Virus record (IMG/VR): IMGVR_UViG_3300033144_006696
Span: 1 to 64,000 of that record
Strand: one strand, 5' to 3'
DNA length: 64,000 nucleotides
Origin: a virus
The notes beneath the pieces are model-generated. The model did not search any database. It had not been told where the DNA came from and saw nothing but the letters and a program-made list of their open reading frames with translations. Below, piece by piece: positions 3,902 to 24,996 of the stretch (position 1 is the first letter of the stretch; every line of letters begins with the position of its first letter). A program made the position numbers and the translations under genes.

Positions 3902-4843
3902 TTAATATTTTCCGTCAATCTTTCCACGAATAAATCTTAAATCTTCTTTTGATAAGGTATCGGGATCAGTTCCTTCTGGGAGATCCAGAATTTCTACATT
4001 GACAAATGGAGCAAGTTCATTTGCCAATTTATTTGCTCCTTCTATTCCTGCTTGATCACTGTCGAATATTATTATCACCTTGCTATATTTTGATAATATC
4101 AGTTTTTGTTTTGACGTAAGAGTAACACCAAATCCAGTTACTGCACCATTTCCAATTCTGTATTTGTCAAAAATCCCTTCAACCAAGCAGCAAATGACAC
4201 CGTTTGTGAATTCAGTCCCGTAGATTAATTCTTTTACATGAACAACTGAAAGCTCCTTTGATAAATGTTTATAGCGTAATTTTGAATCTTTAGAAATATC
4301 AATGCTTGTATATGTTAAAATTTTATTCCTGTTGTAAATTGGAACTATTATACGATTTGCCCATTTTCCTGATGACTTACAAAAATGGAGATTATATTTT
4401 TTTGTGAGATATATTGGATCAAACCTGCGTCCTTTCAAATAATTGGCATGTCTATTCCCTATTATTGATTTAGCTTCATCAGGAATATTGACCTTAATAC
4501 TTCTTGTTTGTTCACTTCTTTGATATGGTATTTTCAGTTCCCTGGACTCATGTTTGTGTAATATATCCAGAGCTTTTTCAAAAGATTGAAGTTCTTCTAT
4601 CAGGTAAGTTAAATAATTGCCAGTTTTTCCACATTTAAAACAACTTATAACAGGACTTTTAAGACATAAACCTAAGTGATTTGATTCATCATCCATACAA
4701 AATGGGCAGCTAACACCTATCCATCCCAACGAGACATTCTTTCCTGATTCAAAATATTCTATTTCAAGATCATCAAGAATTTCTCTAATATCAATGTTAT
4801 CTAATTGGATATTTTTGTATTTTCTTCTTTTTATTTGTCTCAT
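3902..4843 (-). CDS. DNA primase (Zn-binding domain + TOPRIM)
   Basis: CPFC...CFKC zinc finger; VEGIFD, IFDSDQAG and TDPD TOPRIM acidic motifs. Confidence 0.85.
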   Translation of the reverse strand: MRQIKRRKYKNIQLDNIDIREILDDLEIEYFESGKNVSLGWIGVSCPFCMDDESNHLGLCLKSPVISCFKCGKTGNYLTYLIEELQSFEKALDILHKHESRELKIPYQRSEQTRSIKVNIPDEAKSIIGNRHANYLKGRRFDPIYLTKKYNLHFCKSSGKWANRIIVPIYNRNKILTYTSIDISKDSKLRYKHLSKELSVVHVKELIYGTEFTNGVICCLVEGIFDKYRIGNGAVTGFGVTLTSKQKLILSKYSKVIIIFDSDQAGIEGANKLANELAPFVNVEILDLPEGTDPDTLSKEDLRFIRGKIDGKY

Positions 4844-4880: not shown

Positions 4881-5240
4881 TCAAGATATTTTAGTTGTAG
4901 TTTTGTCGCATAATTCACTAAGTTTATTGAAATTTCTACATATAAGAACAACTTTTTCAGCTATTTCTTTTGTCATTAGCTTCATATGACATTCTTTTGG
5001 AGGGATTCCAAGACTTTTTGTTAACCAAGCATAGGCTACAGACCTTTTCATGAGTTTACTTTTCCAAATGATATCAAATGCTTGGTGAGCTTTTATTCTG
5101 GCAGCGTGTGTATTAGAATCTACAAGTGGGGATTCACCCCAACTCCACAAATTGCATGCTTGACAATAATTTTTACATCCATACTTAGTATTTGTTGTTT
5201 TTGCTTTTTTCCCGCAAGTAGGACAGTATATTGTCACCAT
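4881..5240 (-). CDS. DUF3268-like zinc-finger protein
   Basis: CPTCG...CQAC...RIKAHQAFDIIWKS...RSVAYAWL...LGIP..ECHM. Confidence 0.65.
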   Translation of the reverse strand: MVTIYCPTCGKKAKTTNTKYGCKNYCQACNLWSWGESPLVDSNTHAARIKAHQAFDIIWKSKLMKRSVAYAWLTKSLGIPPKECHMKLMTKEIAEKVVLICRNFNKLSELCDKTTTKIS

Positions 5241-5242
5241 AT

Positions 5243-5590
5243 TTACTCCTCCCGGCCAGGAGCTGGATGGTTTGATAAATCTTCTCCATCAGCAATTGCC
5301 TGTATGATAAGATCCCAATCACCTTTTTTCCAGGAATAGAAAGTAGGATTCCTTTTACAACAAACACAGTTTGGGTAGTTTCTTGTAATTCGCGGTTTTC
5401 CATCCTTAAAAATAGTGCTAACCGGGTTACTTTTATTATTGGCACACTCCACTGGATAAGGCAGTCTATTTTCGTAATAGGAACACCAACGACCAATCTT
5501 TTTAGGTTTTATAATTTTTGTGATTTTTCTGGCTTTTTTGATTATTGGTTTCTGTATTTTTCTATATTTTTCTTTTAATACTCTTGTCAT
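5243..5590 (-). CDS. Hypothetical protein (basic N-terminus, Cys-rich)
   Basis: ORF track, GGAG SD at end of upstream gene region. Confidence 0.55.
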   Translation of the reverse strand: MTRVLKEKYRKIQKPIIKKARKITKIIKPKKIGRWCSYYENRLPYPVECANNKSNPVSTIFKDGKPRITRNYPNCVCCKRNPTFYSWKKGDWDLIIQAIADGEDLSNHPAPGREE

Positions 5591-5634
5591 ATTAGATCCT
5601 TAATTGTAATTTTATCATTTTTTCATTCAATTTT

Positions 5635-5835
5635 TTATCTGGCATTTCTATACTCTGCTTCCTTGCCAAGTTCACAATCACAGTATGACCATTCAGAACC
5701 TGATCCTCTACATACCTTGCATGATGATCCATCATACATGCCTTCTCCAGATCCATTACAAGCTCTACATAAACCTTCTATGATGCCATTTTCACAAAGT
5801 TCACAAATTTCAACTTCTTTAGTTTTCTCAGCCAT
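5635..5835 (-). CDS. Small DnaJ-like CxxCxGxG zinc-finger protein
   Basis: CELCENG, CRACNGSG, CKVCRGSG repeats; AGGAG SD. Confidence 0.6.
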   Translation of the reverse strand: MAEKTKEVEICELCENGIIEGLCRACNGSGEGMYDGSSCKVCRGSGSEWSYCDCELGKEAEYRNAR

Positions 5836-5877
5836 GTTGTTTCTCCTTGATTGGTGTTATATAAAAATTTTTAATTC

Positions 5878-5906
5878 TTGACAATATATAAATTATATTG
5901 TACTCT
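5878..5906 (+). promoter_or_regulatory. sigma70-like promoter pointing into the non-coding structured region
   Basis: TTGACA (5878-5883), 17-bp spacer, TACTCT (5901-5906). Confidence 0.6.
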
Positions 5907-5912
5907 TTATTA

Positions 5913-6325
5913 ATTAATGGGGTTCTTTGGCTGGCTTTCTTACACCTCAATAAAATTAGTTCCTGACTAATCAAAAAGCAGAAGCCGTAAAATTTATTTT
6001 CAGGAAAGTGAAGTATTAGTGGGTGTGACCCGCACCACTTCGGTATATATAAGTCAGGGAGATTTATTCTCCCTAACGACACACACAAAGCGACTACGGC
6101 ATATGGAATTTTCCATAATCGGTAGGGTGAGCGCAGATGGACCCTGCGAAATCAAATTGTTGACTTAGTAAACCTAATACTTCCACTTAATTTATTTTCA
6201 TAAAATAGAAAACAAGAAATAAATTAAGTTCTGGCCTGTTCCCGCTCAGTCAGCTCACACAATTTCCTGTGTGTGTGGAATACGGGTTAGCAGTTCTATG
6301 TCTTGTGCATGGTTTTTCTTCCTTT
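5913..6325 (+). ncRNA. Candidate ~400-nt structured ncRNA, unidentified
   Basis: No credible ORF, GC-richer than flanks, at least eight helices visible by eye, upstream promoter and downstream T-rich tract. Confidence 0.45.
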
Positions 6326-6427
6326 TTTTTTCTTTTATGTGTTGTTTTTTGCTGCTTTAATTGAGTTTTAAATCAATCTCATACTCTGATACTCAAAAGA
6401 TTTAAAACTCTGTTAAATCAACTAAAA

Positions 6428-6700
6428 TTAACTTTGAATCAGTGAATTTTTATCATAACTTAAATAATTTCTAATTTTTGATGTGCGATTTGTATGGTTT
6501 TTTCTAAATTCAACAGTCTTACCAATTTCTTTCATTGATTTTATGAATTTTGTAAGATCACTATCCTCTTCCAGGTAAATATTATCATCCCGCATGTAAG
6601 AATAAGTTGATATTTTATTTTGAATCCCTAATTTTTTAATTAAAGATTTTTGAACTTTCAACCAACCATGACCAGGATCGCTAAAAAATTGGAATTTCAT
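6428..6700 (-). CDS. Conserved hypothetical protein (SDPGHGWL...YLEED type)
   Basis: Recognisable FSDPGHGWLKV...ISTYSY...YLEEDSD motif common in phages and plasmids. Confidence 0.7.
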   Translation of the reverse strand: MKFQFFSDPGHGWLKVQKSLIKKLGIQNKISTYSYMRDDNIYLEEDSDLTKFIKSMKEIGKTVEFRKNHTNRTSKIRNYLSYDKNSLIQS

Positions 6701-6921
6701 AAATTTTCCTCCTTCAATTTATCAATCAGATCTTGTAATTTGCCATCAAAAGGATTGTTATTTCCCATTGCTTGATTAAGCCCATACTCATTGTAGATAT
6801 AATAATTAGAAGCTATCTGAAAGTTTTTCAAAACACCAGTATATACCACAGAATCAATTAATCTTCTTGCTTCTGTGATAAGTTCCATTGCCTTTTCAAT
6901 TTTTTGAATATTTTTACTCAT
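6697..6921 (-). CDS. Hypothetical protein
   Basis: ORF overlapping next gene by ATGA. Confidence 0.5.
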   Translation of the reverse strand: MSKNIQKIEKAMELITEARRLIDSVVYTGVLKNFQIASNYYIYNEYGLNQAMGNNNPFDGKLQDLIDKLKEENL

Positions 6922-7455
6922 TTATCCACCATTGTATATGTTTATGAACGTATTTAAATGTCGGACTTGAGCTATTGTAATTTTTCAATTAAGACATTGT
7001 TCCGCTGCAAGATGATGACAAATAGCTTCATTAAAATCTTTGTATTGTCCGAAATTTGTCTTTTTATTATTTACTGTGATATAAGATTTATATTTTGATC
7101 TTTTATTTTTACATACACCTTTAACTCCACTTTTATTGTTTTTTAAATTTCTTATATTTCGTGTATTATATTGTTGTGATATTTCTCTGAGATTAGAAAT
7201 CCAATTATGGTGTTTTATTCTATCTTTATGATTAATATCATTTTCAGGCCAATACCCATAAATATATAACCAAGCCAAACGATGTGCAGTATAATTGTTT
7301 TTATTAATTGTTATCTAAATATATCCATCTGAATTTTTACATCCTGCAATATTTCCAATTTTAATTTTTCTTTTTGATACTTTCCATTTAAATATTCTGT
7401 TTAATGGATTGTAATTTAATTGTTTTTTCAATTCCTTGTATGTTAATTTTGCCAT
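6914..7455 (-). pseudogene. Degraded HNH-AP2 homing endonuclease
   Basis: MAKLTYKELKKQLNYNP...GYI*ITIN...AHRLAWLYIYGYWPENDINHKD..NWISNLR...NKSGVKGV; in-frame TAG at 7315-7317 and an apparent 1-nt deletion at about 6985 (TGG to TGA) before ...NSSSPTFKYV. Confidence 0.75.
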
Positions 7456-7567
7456 TTTTTCTTTCTTTGTTCCAATATTTGCTTTTGCAATTTGGACACA
7501 ATACAGGTTTATTTTTTGTTCTTGGGTACCATTTGTGCAGGCATCTTAAACATTGTAATTTTTTCAT
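7388..7567 (-). CDS. Small zinc-ribbon protein upstream of the HNH pseudogene
   Basis: Manual translation MKKLQCLRCLHKWYPRTKNKPVLCPNCKSKYW... (59 aa), AGGAG SD. Confidence 0.55.
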   Translation of the reverse strand: MKKLQCLRCLHKWYPRTKNKPVLCPNCKSKYWNKERKNGKINIQGIEKTIKLQSIKQNI

Positions 7568-8037: not shown

Positions 8038-8748
8038 TTATTCTTCTTTTATTTTTCTGCGCTTCTTTGGTCTTGTATATGTTATATGTTTCCAAGTTTT
8101 TTTATTCCATATATTTCCCACTGTACCACCACTAACATTAAATAATCTACCAACTTCAGACTGTGTTAGTTTTTCTTTTAAACTTAATATTTTTTTAACT
8201 TCATATTCTGTAAGTTTTGCCTTTGTATTTTTTATCCCTCTTGCTGATCTTCCTTTATTTTTCATATCTTGAAAATTATCTATGTGAGTTCCAAGAAATA
8301 AATGATCTGGATTTATGCATTTAGGATTATCACATGTATGACATACCTGTTTATCTTTTGGATCAATTCCTTTTAGATACTTGAATACGTATCTTGAAGC
8401 TAATGGTGATTCTTTGCTACGTGTACCACTTATTCTTGCATATCCTTTTATAAGTGATTTTGTCCAATTCCAGCAATTTGTTTTTGGGTCAATTTCAATT
8501 CTTGAAATTACAAAATCTTTATGTGATTGTTTATTTTTATTTTTTTTACCATTTTTTGATCTTGCTTCCAGAGCAAGACAGCCACAAGATTGTGTTTTTC
8601 CTACCCCACGAACTATTGCTGTTTTTCCACAATCACATTTACATTCCCAAAAAGTACATTGATTTTTTATATATGCTAATTTTATAAATGTTAATCTTCC
8701 ACGTTTTATTCCTGTTAGTTCTAACCTTTTACTCATGATCATCCCCAC
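8038..8748 (-). CDS. HNH homing endonuclease (N-terminal CxCxCG module, HNH, C-terminal HTH)
   Basis: WECKCDCG; CWNWT; VCHTCDNPKCINPDHLFLGTHIDN; AKLTEYEVKKI. Confidence 0.85.
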   Translation of the reverse strand: MGMIMSKRLELTGIKRGRLTFIKLAYIKNQCTFWECKCDCGKTAIVRGVGKTQSCGCLALEARSKNGKKNKNKQSHKDFVISRIEIDPKTNCWNWTKSLIKGYARISGTRSKESPLASRYVFKYLKGIDPKDKQVCHTCDNPKCINPDHLFLGTHIDNFQDMKNKGRSARGIKNTKAKLTEYEVKKILSLKEKLTQSEVGRLFNVSGGTVGNIWNKKTWKHITYTRPKKRRKIKEE

Positions 8749-11132
8749 TCATCTTTATAAATTTTATTACGTGAATAACCAGAGTATTTTAGAATACGCA
8801 CATTTTCATCTCGAAAATCAATGACTCTCGGTGTTTTATTTTTGTCTGGACGTAAAATTCTGCCAATGCTCTGTATTACCCTACCCTTCCACTTTACAGG
8901 AGTAGTTAAACACAAACAAGACAAACTGTCAAGTGAGAACCCTTCCCCGATTAATGAGAGTGTTGACAATAGAACCCTACATTTATTATTTTTCATATCT
9001 TTAATAATTTGTTTTCTTTTTTTGGATGCTGTTTTTCCAGAAACAACTAAATGATTAATTTTTATACTGTTTAACAATTTTGATAATGTATTTAAATGGT
9101 TCACCCTATCAGAAACAACTAAAATATTTCCATTATTATTTTTTATATCTGCATGGATTGTACGAACTATTAATTCATTCCTTTTTGGATCTTCCGTCAA
9201 TTTCTTAATGATAGTTGCGTATGGCATTTGATCCTCATCAATGAAACTTCTTGCTGCCCTAAAATTTGTTTTCACAAGAATAATTTGAGGTTTTAACACT
9301 TGTCCTTTTTCAAACAATAACTTCTTATCTACAGTATGGAGTTTGGGTCCCATATGCACATAGATTGCCCCTCCAAGACCATCTTTTCTGTAAGGTGTTG
9401 CAGATAATCCCATATAATGTTTTGCAGGGAATTGAATCAACGTATCGGACCATGTGTCGCTGGTTACACGATGACAGTTATGAACCAAAATGCCATTTGC
9501 AAAGTAGTTATTGTTGTCCTCAACTTCTATATTATAGACATAACCATCTGGACACACTTTTCCAAATTCTGATCCACTTCTGCGTTTGTGAACCGTAACA
9601 CTTTCCACCCTTTCCATTTTAAGAGAGATTCTTTCTTTCTGTCTAATTTCTTTCTTTGAATTGAATTGTGACTCTTTCCATCTATTTCTATTGCAATCTT
9701 CAATTTTCGATTTCCTAAATCCACTTTGTATACTTGTGGTACTTTCTTTTTCCGACACCACGCATGTTTGTTTCCATTGACATGATCTGCTGTTTTTACA
9801 GGTATTTCCATTTCCCATCCAAGTGCAATTGCCATTTTTTCTTGTTGGGGAGTCGGTCCAGTTCCGTTCCCACCTCTTGCTCCAAGCCATACATTGAATG
9901 TTCCATTTATTCTCCTCTTGGATTTCATTTTTTCTATGTTTAATGATGAGTGCATTGGGTTCGTTTCTGTCATCCGTTTGCTGTTGGCTCTCCTGGCCTG
10001 TTTTGATTTTGAATATAGGATTGTAGCTTTCATTCCACACTCCGGTGTGCAATATACATTTTTGTTTTGATTTGCTCTTTTTCTCTGATAAGGTGTTTTG
10101 CACTCTATAATTTTTTTGCAACTTGGACAAACGGTCATGATCTTTTTCATTTTGTTCTCCTTTTAAAATAGTATACTCTGTGGCTAACACAGAGTTATCA
10201 TTTAATTCGGAGGCTGTCAAGTACTCATTTCCATCAAAGAATGTGTGATTTGTTGTGCATACATTCTTTTTGCCATTTTTTAATTTCACAGTACATAGTG
10301 TATCAGGTTTATGTTTAAATACATTGAGAACTTTTTTCAATTCTATTAGATTTGTTTCATGGTTAAAACTATTTACATAATCACCAATCTTTATTGTTTC
10401 AATTGGCTTATCTCCAATTAATGTGCCTGCAATAAAACATTCGTCGCAAATTATATGGCCAAATTTACGTTCAAGTTCAGGCATTTTATTTTTTACCGTA
10501 TTGATTATTCCCACAGAGACATCTTTGATATTAAATTTCCCATCACCGATTATTCCACAGTCATAATCAAGAAACTTCTTGATTGATTCTTGCCATTGAT
10601 ACAGTAATTCTTTTGTATGAATTATTATTAATGTTGGTTGTTTTCTTTTTGCAATTACAGCGATAGCTATTATTGTTTTGCCTGAACCTGTATTTGCTTT
10701 AAGAACACCTATTGGATATCTCCGAATAATATCATTTACTGCAATTTCTTGGTAATCCCTTAACTTACCTTGAAACTTCAGATTTATTCCAGGTAGAGTC
10801 AAGGTTCTATCATCAATCTTAACTGGATAACCATTGTTTTTGAGCCATTTTTTCATGACCCAAATATAACCTCTTGGTGACCATATAATTTTACCATCGC
10901 GTGATACGGCAAAATATCTTATTTTTTCTGGTATGTCTGATGACACATAAGACCCAAATCTTATTGCATCATCGTAAGCTTTATTTTTGTATGTTAAATC
11001 TGAAAATAATTTCCTCATCGCCTCTTCATCTAAACCATAGTAGCGGCAGCCTTTGCCGATTTGTATGGTAACTGTATTTTTACCATTCTCCATCATAATA
11101 ATTACCACTATCTTCATTTGATTCATTATCAA
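8739..11132 (-). CDS. SF2 (DExH) helicase containing an intein
   Basis: NTGSGKT Walker A, DE|CH motif II split by intein, GLSATP motif III, QSIGRILR motif VI. Confidence 0.9.
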   Translation of the reverse strand: MIMNQMKIVVIIMMENGKNTVTIQIGKGCRYYGLDEEAMRKLFSDLTYKNKAYDDAIRFGSYVSSDIPEKIRYFAVSRDGKIIWSPRGYIWVMKKWLKNNGYPVKIDDRTLTLPGINLKFQGKLRDYQEIAVNDIIRRYPIGVLKANTGSGKTIIAIAVIAKRKQPTLIIIHTKELLYQWQESIKKFLDYDCGIIGDGKFNIKDVSVGIINTVKNKMPELERKFGHIICDECFIAGTLIGDKPIETIKIGDYVNSFNHETNLIELKKVLNVFKHKPDTLCTVKLKNGKKNVCTTNHTFFDGNEYLTASELNDNSVLATEYTILKGEQNEKDHDRLSKLQKNYRVQNTLSEKKSKSKQKCILHTGVWNESYNPIFKIKTGQESQQQTDDRNEPNALIIKHRKNEIQEENKWNIQCMAWSKRWERNWTDSPTRKNGNCTWMGNGNTCKNSRSCQWKQTCVVSEKESTTSIQSGFRKSKIEDCNRNRWKESQFNSKKEIRQKERISLKMERVESVTVHKRRSGSEFGKVCPDGYVYNIEVEDNNNYFANGILVHNCHRVTSDTWSDTLIQFPAKHYMGLSATPYRKDGLGGAIYVHMGPKLHTVDKKLLFEKGQVLKPQIILVKTNFRAARSFIDEDQMPYATIIKKLTEDPKRNELIVRTIHADIKNNNGNILVVSDRVNHLNTLSKLLNSIKINHLVVSGKTASKKRKQIIKDMKNNKCRVLLSTLSLIGEGFSLDSLSCLCLTTPVKWKGRVIQSIGRILRPDKNKTPRVIDFRDENVRILKYSGYSRNKIYKDEWG
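9477..10439 (-). mobile_element. Intein (321 aa) in helicase motif II with no in-frame nuclease domain
   Basis: Starts CFIAGTLI, block B CTTNHTFF, block F VYNIEVEDNNNYFA, ends LVHN followed by extein Cys. Confidence 0.9.
9527..10150 (-). CDS. Vsr/DUF559-like PD-(D/E)xK endonuclease nested in the +1 frame of the helicase intein
   Basis: CPSC..CTPEC Zn motif; YKVDLG...IAIEIDGKSH...DRKKESLLKWKGWKVLRFTN; own SD AAAGGAG 6 nt before ATG. Confidence 0.85.
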   Translation of the reverse strand: MKKIMTVCPSCKKIIECKTPYQRKRANQNKNVYCTPECGMKATILYSKSKQARRANSKRMTETNPMHSSLNIEKMKSKRRINGTFNVWLGARGGNGTGPTPQQEKMAIALGWEMEIPVKTADHVNGNKHAWCRKKKVPQVYKVDLGNRKLKIAIEIDGKSHNSIQRKKLDRKKESLLKWKGWKVLRFTNAEVDQNLEKCVQMVMSII

Positions 11133-18175: not shown

Positions 18176-18211
18176 TTGACAACAATATAATTGTTATTTT
18201 ATTGTTGTCAA
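18176..18211. promoter_or_regulatory. 12-bp inverted repeat carrying TTGACA on both strands; minus-strand promoter TTGACA-17-TATATT
   Basis: TTGACAACAATA-N12-TATTGTTGTCAA. Confidence 0.5.
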
Positions 18212-18579: not shown

Positions 18580-18681
18580 AATTTTCTCCTTGTTAAGTTT
18601 AAATATCTGCCCATTTGCTCGGGGCTGTCAGAAATGCGCCTGTATTATTTGCGGCAGTTTTCACATATGATAAAATATCTT

Positions 18682-24842: not shown

Positions 24843-24967
24843 GTTTAGTTCTCCTTTAATAAAGATAAATCGTTTTTATTGCTTACTACTTAGATCGTTT
24901 TTAATCCCCATTGGATTAAAAATAATTGTATTGTAGAATTATGATATTTTCATAATCGTACATGCTC

Positions 24968-24996
24968 CCTATAATATAAATAAAAACACTTGTCAA
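24968..24996 (-). promoter_or_regulatory. Candidate early promoter
   Basis: TTGACA-17-TATAGG on minus strand. Confidence 0.45.

Follow-up and report, generated by a model that had tools for sequence, protein, structure and literature searches.

A candidate structured non-coding RNA in the longest intergenic region of a 124-kb phage genome from IMG/VR

Introduction

Does the gene-free gap between two small genes in the replication module of the virus record IMGVR_UViG_3300033144_006696 hold a functional structured RNA and, if it does, on which of the two DNA strands? The record is a 123,866-bp IMG/VR virus genome with a GC content of 31%, rated 100% complete by CheckV, and the window analysed here is its first 64 kb (64,000 nucleotides (nt)). 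Its capsid and primase proteins share no more than ~30% identity with those of any cultured phage. Phages are known to carry abundant large non-coding RNAs (ncRNAs) in gaps devoid of open reading frames (ORFs), such as the ~800-nt RNA of the tRNA-less phage ICP1 (PMC7567579) and the GOLLD (RF01998) and ROOL (RF03087) RNAs (PMC12286853), and the GC-IGR method finds structured RNAs by way of long, GC-rich intergenic regions (PMC6429828, PMC8632094). A first-pass annotation of the window had proposed that a plus-strand promoter drives a structured RNA of ~400 nt across the gap. We place the probability that the locus is a functional structured RNA, either strand counted, at roughly 0.55. If true, this would represent a new structured RNA in a phage lineage without cultured relatives. 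The feature is a candidate phage-borne structured ncRNA, of a kind that is already known, with no relative in the databases searched, and the present worth of such a single orphan sequence is that of a candidate and not of a discovery. GOLLD, ROOL and the ICP1 RNA are abundant yet unexplained, and a compact example of ~190 nt would be more tractable for study.

Results

The gap is non-coding and rich in GC

A codon-usage score trained on the long ORFs of the same phage gave negative log-odds in all six frames over 5841-6420, as compared to +0.22 to +0.45 for five neighbouring genes. The longest open frame of the gap (106 codons, minus strand) scored -0.18 and has no start codon with a ribosome site, and an exhaustive phmmer search with this frame against 1.84 billion protein representatives returned a single marginal match that proved to be a repeat-protein artefact. 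The small ORFs of the gap had no match in PHROGs or Pfam, and six-frame tblastn of the gap against ~250 related loci found nothing real. A protein-coding function was rejected on the basis of these scores and searches; the gap is non-coding and, with the spurious 106-codon frame set aside, is the longest intergenic region of the genome. The GC content of the block within it (hereafter the island) is 0.39-0.47, as opposed to 0.25-0.31 in the flanks, and the 150-nt segment 6001-6150 reaches 0.47 against an intergenic mean of 0.26; the next-richest 150-nt segment among the other intergenic regions, at 18607, reaches 0.42. Between 565 and 22777, every ORF of at least 100 codons is encoded on the minus strand. 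The first-pass annotation had described an ORF-free block, richer in GC than its surroundings, amid minus-strand genes and close to a DUF3268-like gene, and in all of these respects the description was borne out.

Two very short frames of the gap are recorded here for completeness. On the plus strand, a 17-codon ORF at 5918-5971 (MGFFGWLSYTSIKLVPD) begins ~5 nt past the predicted plus-strand start and would be nearly leaderless; it has neither a ribosome site nor a coding signal and is probably due to chance. On the minus strand, at 6297-6327, a polypurine tract ends in AAAGGAAG, which resembles a Shine-Dalgarno (SD) sequence and is followed after 7 nt by the four-codon mini-ORF ATG CAC AAG ACA TAG, which could be a chance occurrence or a leader minigene.

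A 188-nt core folds beyond chance

The significance of each fold was expressed as the z-score of its minimum free energy (MFE) relative to shuffled sequence, for both strands. A sliding-window scan of 4.5-8.0 kb showed one sole sustained run of strongly negative z-scores, at 5926-6450. The 188-nt core domain (Table 1) has a plus-strand MFE of -58.4 kcal/mol (z -4.29); its minus-strand MFE is -70.1 kcal/mol (z -7.85, with a centroid almost equal to the MFE structure). As single-stranded DNA the same core yields z -4.2 on either strand. The minus-strand RNA is predicted to form a well-defined six-way junction, and the plus-strand RNA a nested architecture that uses the TAAGTCA/TGACTTA helix.

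According to the folding models, structure beyond chance is limited to this core, the 13-bp AU hairpin that adjoins it and the AT-rich hairpin at 6341-6432. The latter, when folded as 6336-6436, has -19.7 kcal/mol (z -4.6) on the plus strand and -25.4 kcal/mol (z -5.7) on the minus strand, and the inverted repeat is not followed by a U tract on either strand. The segment 5908-6005, which includes the TTCCTGA/TCAGGAA helix, scored z +1.15 (plus) and +0.07 (minus), the segment 6230-6340 did not differ from chance (z -2.1 plus, -1.2 minus), and the whole 431 nt of the plus strand reached only z -2.05. These per-segment scores indicate that the robust element is the 188-nt core with its flanking AT-rich hairpins, rather than a uniform 400-nt fold. 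Of the ~400-nt structured RNA proposed by the first-pass annotation the core consequently stands, having passed the comparison with shuffled controls, while a robust fold over the full length is not supported; the individual helices that it had listed, the 13-bp hairpin included, were all found.

The core is flanked by the two copies of a perfect 12-nt direct repeat, AATTTATTTTCA, and the right copy falls for the most part within the AU hairpin, the first 4 nt of which overlap the 3' strand of the helix that closes the core. As the hairpin would form at the expense of the last four pairs of that helix, this repeat could equally belong to an RNA switch.

Strong folds were also seen in intergenic segments elsewhere in the record: 24843-24992, 72596-72745, 86940-87089, 115883-116032 and 117657-117806 have z-scores of -5 to -8 on at least one strand. 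These five are probably terminators or long inverted repeats, and none is as GC-rich as the core.

Candidate transcription signals are present on both strands

A sigma-70-type promoter-like site faces into the gap from its left end on the plus strand (Table 1). The perfect pattern TTGACA-N17-TAnnnT occurs seven times genome-wide, and five of these sites lie in non-coding DNA, which makes up 13% of the genome; this corresponds to a 13-fold excess over the 0.38 non-coding copies expected, and 200 shuffles never gave more than two. The four other non-coding copies are located 20-192 nt upstream of a gene on the same strand, the copy at 5878 being the only one without a gene behind it. The TTGACA-17-TACTCT site reported previously is present and belongs to a motif class enriched in non-coding DNA, and a plus-strand promoter at 5878 is credible on the strength of its motif. 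Of the looser forms, TTGAC-N16-18-TAnnnT has 32 copies genome-wide versus ~32 estimated from base composition, and TTGACW-N16-18-TACTNT has two copies in the window versus 0.5 expected. Back to back with the plus-strand site is a weaker promoter-like site on the minus strand, the -35 element of which overlaps the plus-strand -35 element and the -10 element of which lacks the final T; this candidate promoter would serve the 66-aa zinc-finger gene. At the other end, the block runs into a T tract, as had been noted before, that reads as a polypurine tract on the minus strand. Together with the weak hairpin preceding it, this tract is a possible terminator, by hairpin prediction, for a plus-strand RNA of ~410-425 nt.

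The minus strand was scanned for terminators and none was found between the 90-aa gene and the gap, for which reason a gene-sense (minus) read-through RNA very probably covers the gap. Within 5400-6900 the scan flagged a single terminator-like site, the hairpin 6077-6053 on the minus strand.

Folding and transcription signals favour opposite strands

The core holds the sequence ACACACACA, which is complementary to TGTGTGTGT further downstream (Table 1). These are the sole such 9-mers in 124 kb and lie 189 nt apart, and their perfect 9-bp Watson-Crick duplex is worth -12.9 to -14.1 kcal/mol in isolation; these findings support the long-range pair at 6079/6268 that had been picked out earlier. 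As the pair crosses the closing helix, its formation would require a pseudoknot or else a different fold. In the plus-strand model the CA run lies in an unpaired junction, free for a long-range pseudoknot worth ~-14 kcal/mol, whereas on the minus strand 6079-6087 may instead pair with a (UA)4 run at 6043-6050. The core fold favours the minus strand by 11.7 kcal/mol, a difference reached by 0 of 150 shuffles, and most of this margin derives from one GU-rich helix, (UG)4 with (UA)4, that is a rival to the CA/TG pair. Since the CA run of the plus strand is free for the long-range pair, the energy gap between the strands would be roughly closed. In terms of the models used here, folding favours the minus strand and the transcription signals favour the plus strand, and these two lines of evidence disagree; a strong folding score does not by itself show which strand matters.

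It is conceivable, albeit unlikely in our estimation, that the minus (gene-sense) RNA alone is functional, as a 188-nt six-way junction located between the 90-aa gene and the zinc-finger/primase operon. Such an element would have a role in cis, be it that of a leader, of a switch or of an element for processing and stability, or it would be excised as a stable RNA. Given that the neighbouring genes are all on the minus strand and that no terminator precedes the gap, the minus RNA is almost certainly made, its MFE, z-score and centroid are the better ones with a strand difference that shuffling did not reproduce, and the hairpin at 6336-6436 is likewise better on this strand. A minus-strand switch would alternate between a fold with a local (CA)5 structure plus (UG)4 paired with (UA)4 and a fold in which (CA)5 pairs with (UG)4; the second of these would free the 10-bp hairpin 6077-6053 with its U/A-rich tail, which the scan flagged as the only terminator-like site of the region. 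The strand advantage is, however, mostly one GU-rich helix between two simple repeats and is roughly evened by the long-range CA pair of the plus strand; ~168 unstructured nt and a promoter-like site intervene before the next start codon, which is unlike the expression platform of a riboswitch; and the unpaired positions, counted by hand, are C-rich and G-poor, which is unusual for functional RNAs. A functional minus RNA would also leave the well-supported plus-strand promoter unexplained. Multi-stem aptamers are exemplified by the six-stem junction of the FMN riboswitch and the five-stem junction of the lysine riboswitch, and the minus-strand fold is similar to these in having a closing helix with five hairpins, a length of ~190 nt and a possible long-range pair. 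Unlike riboswitches, the island has no Rfam riboswitch match and no adjoining expression platform, and its neighbours are replication genes rather than metabolic genes. A plus-strand, promoter-driven RNA is somewhat more likely than the minus-strand fold as an independent gene.

The hairpins and the promoter-like site could also be by-products of simple repeats, AT-rich composition and a recombination-prone region, such that the gap is a neutral spacer. This we regard as highly improbable: phage genomes are compact and yet this is the longest non-coding gap, the core combines its z-scores (-7.9 and -4.3) with the highest intergenic GC, non-coding DNA holds a 13-fold excess of the promoter class, and a unique pair of complementary 9-mers lies 189 nt apart. 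A neutral spacer would nevertheless be in keeping with the lack of demonstrable conservation, with the several other intergenic gaps that hold single 150-nt segments with z below -5, with the modest score of the full-length plus-strand fold and with the chance frequency of the looser promoter patterns genome-wide.

A replication origin as an alternative

Both oriF and oriG of phage T4 are transcription-activated origins. The origin transcript PE1-T of the lactococcal c2-type phages (Ceduovirus) is another example, for which ColE1 RNA II serves as the general model (PMC7150918), and the island might by analogy be an origin that is primed or opened by its promoter-made structured transcript. We consider this quite unlikely, though several features are in its favour. 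Like the c2 origin, the island consists of an ORF-free stretch of poorly conserved sequence directly behind a promoter, without a ribosome site, and the PE1-T transcript has been proposed to act through its length and structure; since c2-type origins diverge even between close relatives (PMC7150918), the absence of homologues described below would fit. The locus is part of the replication module, with the helicase gene on one side and the primase gene on the other. Behind the promoter comes a stretch that is AT-rich and unstructured, the core has AT-rich inverted repeats and a polypurine/polypyrimidine tract next to it, and its fold as DNA has the same significance on either strand. On the other hand, iterons and DnaA boxes were looked for and none was found, owing to which a classic origin was rejected. 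GC skew tracks gene direction, the minus-strand arm extending from ~69 kb across the start of the record as far as 24.8 kb and the plus-strand arm occupying 26-69 kb; turning points of the skew are at ~25 kb and ~69 kb, with no change at 6 kb, and the AT-rich divergent gap at 24.8-26.3 kb, which is larger, makes a candidate no worse than the island. Moreover, where relatives have the same helicase and primase, the two genes are separated by just two small ones. The c2 origin is situated between divergent early and late blocks with its transcript running with the early genes, whereas the promoter of the island runs against all neighbouring genes, inside one arm and without a skew signal.

No relative of the island was found

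Searches of the whole 64-kb window against Rfam 15 gave no match at the gathering score, and at E-values up to 10 only chance-level hits were obtained, the best of which had 21.8 bits as compared to a gathering score of 95, with none covering the core. Families that remained unmatched include GOLLD, ROOL, the HEARO/omega RNA, the DUF3268 motif, group I and group II introns, riboswitches and self-cleaving ribozymes, and ARAGORN detected no tRNA or tmRNA gene in the window, nor in the full genome of 123,866 bp. The earlier statement that the block could not be matched to tRNA, tmRNA, RNase P, a hammerhead or an omega/HEARO RNA is in agreement with these results, as is the outcome of the covariance-model check suggested at that time, which extended to the large phage RNAs and the DUF3268 motif and produced no match.

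At the nucleotide level, blastn at 'distant' settings gave no hit in 50,697 phage records or in 72,556 plasmids; megablast of the first 20 kb, blastn and nhmmer across ~240 loci (77 around relatives of the 66-aa protein, 160 around relatives of the 90-aa protein and three around relatives of the primase) and a search of five whole records of relatives gave none either. A covariance model built from the core alone and applied to 166 syntenic loci, the five whole related records and the phage's own genome found only itself, besides two 13-bit chance hits in DNA of 71% GC. Exact-pattern scans were similarly negative, with one IMG/VR scan giving three chance 18-mer matches, two giving nothing and GTDB giving nothing. 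Complementarity of the island to the rest of the phage genome, gene leaders included, was confined to chance 12-14-mers, and a GC-rich 13-mer common to the island and 7974 does not extend.

By protein similarity the closest known relative is P0002, a 90-aa protein with 76% identity that is encoded on a Logan contig of 14,733 bp; a second contig encodes P0001, which is identical to the 90-aa protein of the phage. In a relative with a 55% identical primase, two small genes alone lie between helicase and primase, with no gap, and the gap downstream of genes of the 90-aa family has a median of 0 across 130 other loci; the latter led us to reject the island as a companion of this gene family. As relatives have no gap, the island is lineage-specific, and it sits in a 3.9-kb variable, lineage-specific segment that contains homing endonucleases.

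A small mobile or horizontally acquired remnant, akin to a miniature inverted-repeat transposable element (MITE) and without present function, is a further explanation that such a setting brings to mind. The insert would then correspond to the core, the terminal inverted repeats to its closing helix and the target-site duplication to the AATTTATTTTCA copies, and two hallmarks of a MITE, terminal inverted repeats and a flanking target-site-like duplication, are indeed present: a 14/15-bp inverted repeat (6006-6019 / 6174-6188) is flanked by the perfect 12-nt repeat. The GC content of the core (0.44-0.47) is foreign to a 31% GC genome, the lineage-specific segment contains HNH genes of which one is broken, the relatives are without the gap, and ncRNAs flanked by inverted repeats are known from phage satellites (PMC7567579). 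The island is in fact similar to the PLE transcript from between inverted repeats (PMC7567579) in being a short non-coding unit with terminal inverted repeats and a flanking direct repeat. Unlike the MITE-like ncRNAs of mobile elements, it is single copy and has no complementarity to leaders beyond chance level. Neither its own genome nor the phage records, plasmids and IMG/VR or GTDB pattern scans hold a second copy, its interior consists of independent near-perfect hairpins rather than one long palindrome, and the left repeat is offset by 3 nt from the inverted repeat, so that we judge this origin of the island to be very unlikely. The AT-rich 12-nt repeat is itself not very rare (~0.4 expected in the gap, though far fewer at the exact flanks).

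Three other candidates were tried and rejected. A group I intron is contradicted by the 90-aa gene, which is full length in comparison with nine homologues, by the 66-aa gene, which is complete as well, and by the lack of any intron model match. For a retron the likeness in layout, an inverted repeat closing the ends together with a long hairpin, is superficial, there being no match to RVT_1 (PF00078) in the genome although controls matched. A captured antisense copy of a foreign gene was dismissed because the island has no nucleotide or protein similarity to anything.

Discussion

We favour a functional structured RNA at this locus, and within that reading a functional plus-strand RNA is a tentative assignment to which we give clearly less than an even chance. 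The following points weigh against the explanation as a whole. The -10 element TACTCT agrees with the consensus at three of six positions and lacks a correctly spaced TG, and the automated promoter scan did not list the 5878-5906 site; the hairpin of the putative terminator is weak (-3.8 kcal/mol), and the terminator scan passed over 6296-6336. The core is more stable by 11.7 kcal/mol on the strand that this promoter does not serve, and its DNA fold, being equally significant on both strands, is compatible with a DNA-level element. Homologues were found nowhere in the searches described above, and the lack of the gap in the nearest relatives implies that the element is dispensable for this type of phage.

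If the plus-strand RNA is functional, RNA polymerase would start near 5913 and generate a transcript of ~410-425 nt that ends at the hairpin and U tract at ~6313-6336. This RNA would comprise an unstructured AU-rich 5' part and the folded core, in which the ACACACACA junction strand may pair with the downstream UGUGUGUGU as a pseudoknot. The gene-sense read-through transcript would carry the more stable six-way-junction fold across the gap, and the two RNAs, being fully complementary, could engage in antisense pairing as their most likely action. Ahead of the zinc-finger/DUF3268/primase operon, such pairing would process the read-through transcript or insulate it, and stability and pairing rate would be set by the folded core. 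An antisense relation ahead of the primase operon is the most economical mechanism, as both strands are probably transcribed; the mechanism itself is a guess, and probably not the right one. It is also possible, though on balance rather doubtful, that the core and the CA/UG pseudoknot represent the first member of a new class of ornate phage RNAs, functioning either in trans or as a switch. In the former case the RNA would be a decoy that counters host defences, or would regulate the replication operon by antisense pairing, and in the latter it would sense a ligand or a protein. A decoy or sponge had also been offered as a possibility by the first-pass annotation.

The island resembles GOLLD, ROOL and the ICP1 RNA in that it occupies a gene-free gap of several hundred nt in a large lytic phage, is GC-richer than its surroundings and contains many hairpins, and its phage is similar to ICP1 in size (~125 kb) and in being without tRNA genes. 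It differs from GOLLD and ROOL in failing both covariance models even at E-values up to 10, and from all three RNAs, which measure 600-800 nt, in that its robust fold spans only 188 nt and that it has no relatives and is not yet a family. Its location within an endonuclease-rich helicase-primase segment is one where accessory and counter-defence functions tend to gather.

Features of the locus and further observations

The coordinates of the island, its signals and the neighbouring genes are collected in Table 1.

Table 1. Predicted features in and around the gene-free gap (window coordinates)
Feature	Position	Strand	Remarks
Primase	3902-4843	minus	Replication module
DUF3268 protein	4881-5240	minus	Replication module
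115-aa protein	between DUF3268 gene and 66-aa gene		Replication module
66-aa DnaJ-type zinc-finger protein	5635-5835	minus	SD AAGGAG, ATG 5835
Gene-free gap	5836-6427		592 nt, between 66-aa and 90-aa genes
Weaker back-to-back promoter-like site	5856-5884	minus	TTGTCA-N17-TATAAC, read from sequence
Sigma-70-type promoter-like site	5878-5906	plus	TTGACA (5878-5883)-N17-TACTCT (5901-5906), predicted start ~5912-5914, into gap
AT-rich segment	5907-6002		~25% GC, putative 5' part of plus RNA, no significant structure
Left copy of perfect 12-nt direct repeat AATTTATTTTCA	5991-6002		Flanks core; right copy 6189-6200
Core structured domain	6003-6190		188 nt, closing helix 6006-6019 / 6174-6188 (14 bp)
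Hairpins inside core	6021-6031, 6053-6077, 6094-6125, 6132-6148, 6149-6166		6053-6077 extendable to 6035-6093 on minus strand
ACACACACA run in core	6079-6087		Complementary to TGTGTGTGT at 6268-6276
Perfect 13-bp AU hairpin	6185-6229		6185-6197/6217-6229; z -2.5 plus, -2.0 minus (6180-6235)
Weakly structured domain	6235-6290		CCCG/CGGG encloses CACACA/UGUGUG hairpin; holds TGTGTGTGT (6268-6276)
Weak hairpin and T tract	6296-6312 and 6313-6336	plus	Plus-only hairpin, -3.8 kcal/mol, 2 G-U pairs
AT-rich inverted repeat	6341-6432		34-nt arms, 79% complementary; abuts 90-aa gene stop codon
90-aa protein	6428-6700	minus	Borders gap
74-aa protein, then broken HNH endonuclease, then intact HNH endonuclease	between 90-aa gene and helicase		
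Intein-containing helicase	8739-11132		Replication module

The 66-aa gene has its own SD sequence and ATG and aligns with its relatives from residue 2. On the other side of the gap, the 90-aa protein belongs to a very widespread family of small phage proteins without a Pfam model, represented at over 500 loci in IMG/VR and at over 570 in the JGI metagenomes; the family has the invariant motifs DPGHGW, YLEEDxD and S.IR.Y and shows a weak, sub-threshold resemblance only to PUA-like domains. Further along, three short minus-strand ORFs at 6985-7567, of 59 aa (7388-7567), 46 aa (7315-7455) and 97 aa (6985-7278), jointly correspond to a single HNH endonuclease of 224 aa that is intact in a related phage (L080:5349-6023), and this region, ~560 nt from the gap, appears from the alignment to be a frameshifted or decaying homing endonuclease gene. 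The phage as a whole combines a 124-kb genome lacking any tRNA genes with an intein in its helicase gene and many HNH endonucleases.

Other promoter-like sites were observed in the record. Two of these, at 86130-86158 and 115922-115950 (outside the window), have an identical 26-nt stretch, TTGACTTTTTCACTTGATTATCATAA, in common and each lies ~100 nt upstream of a small plus-strand gene island inside the minus-strand arm, an arrangement suggestive of a promoter module that has been duplicated. At 18176-18211, in a 348-nt gap, two promoter-like sites overlap as a palindromic pair (TTGACAACAATA...TATTGTTGTCAA), and the 150-nt segment around them folds with z -4.7 / -4.3.

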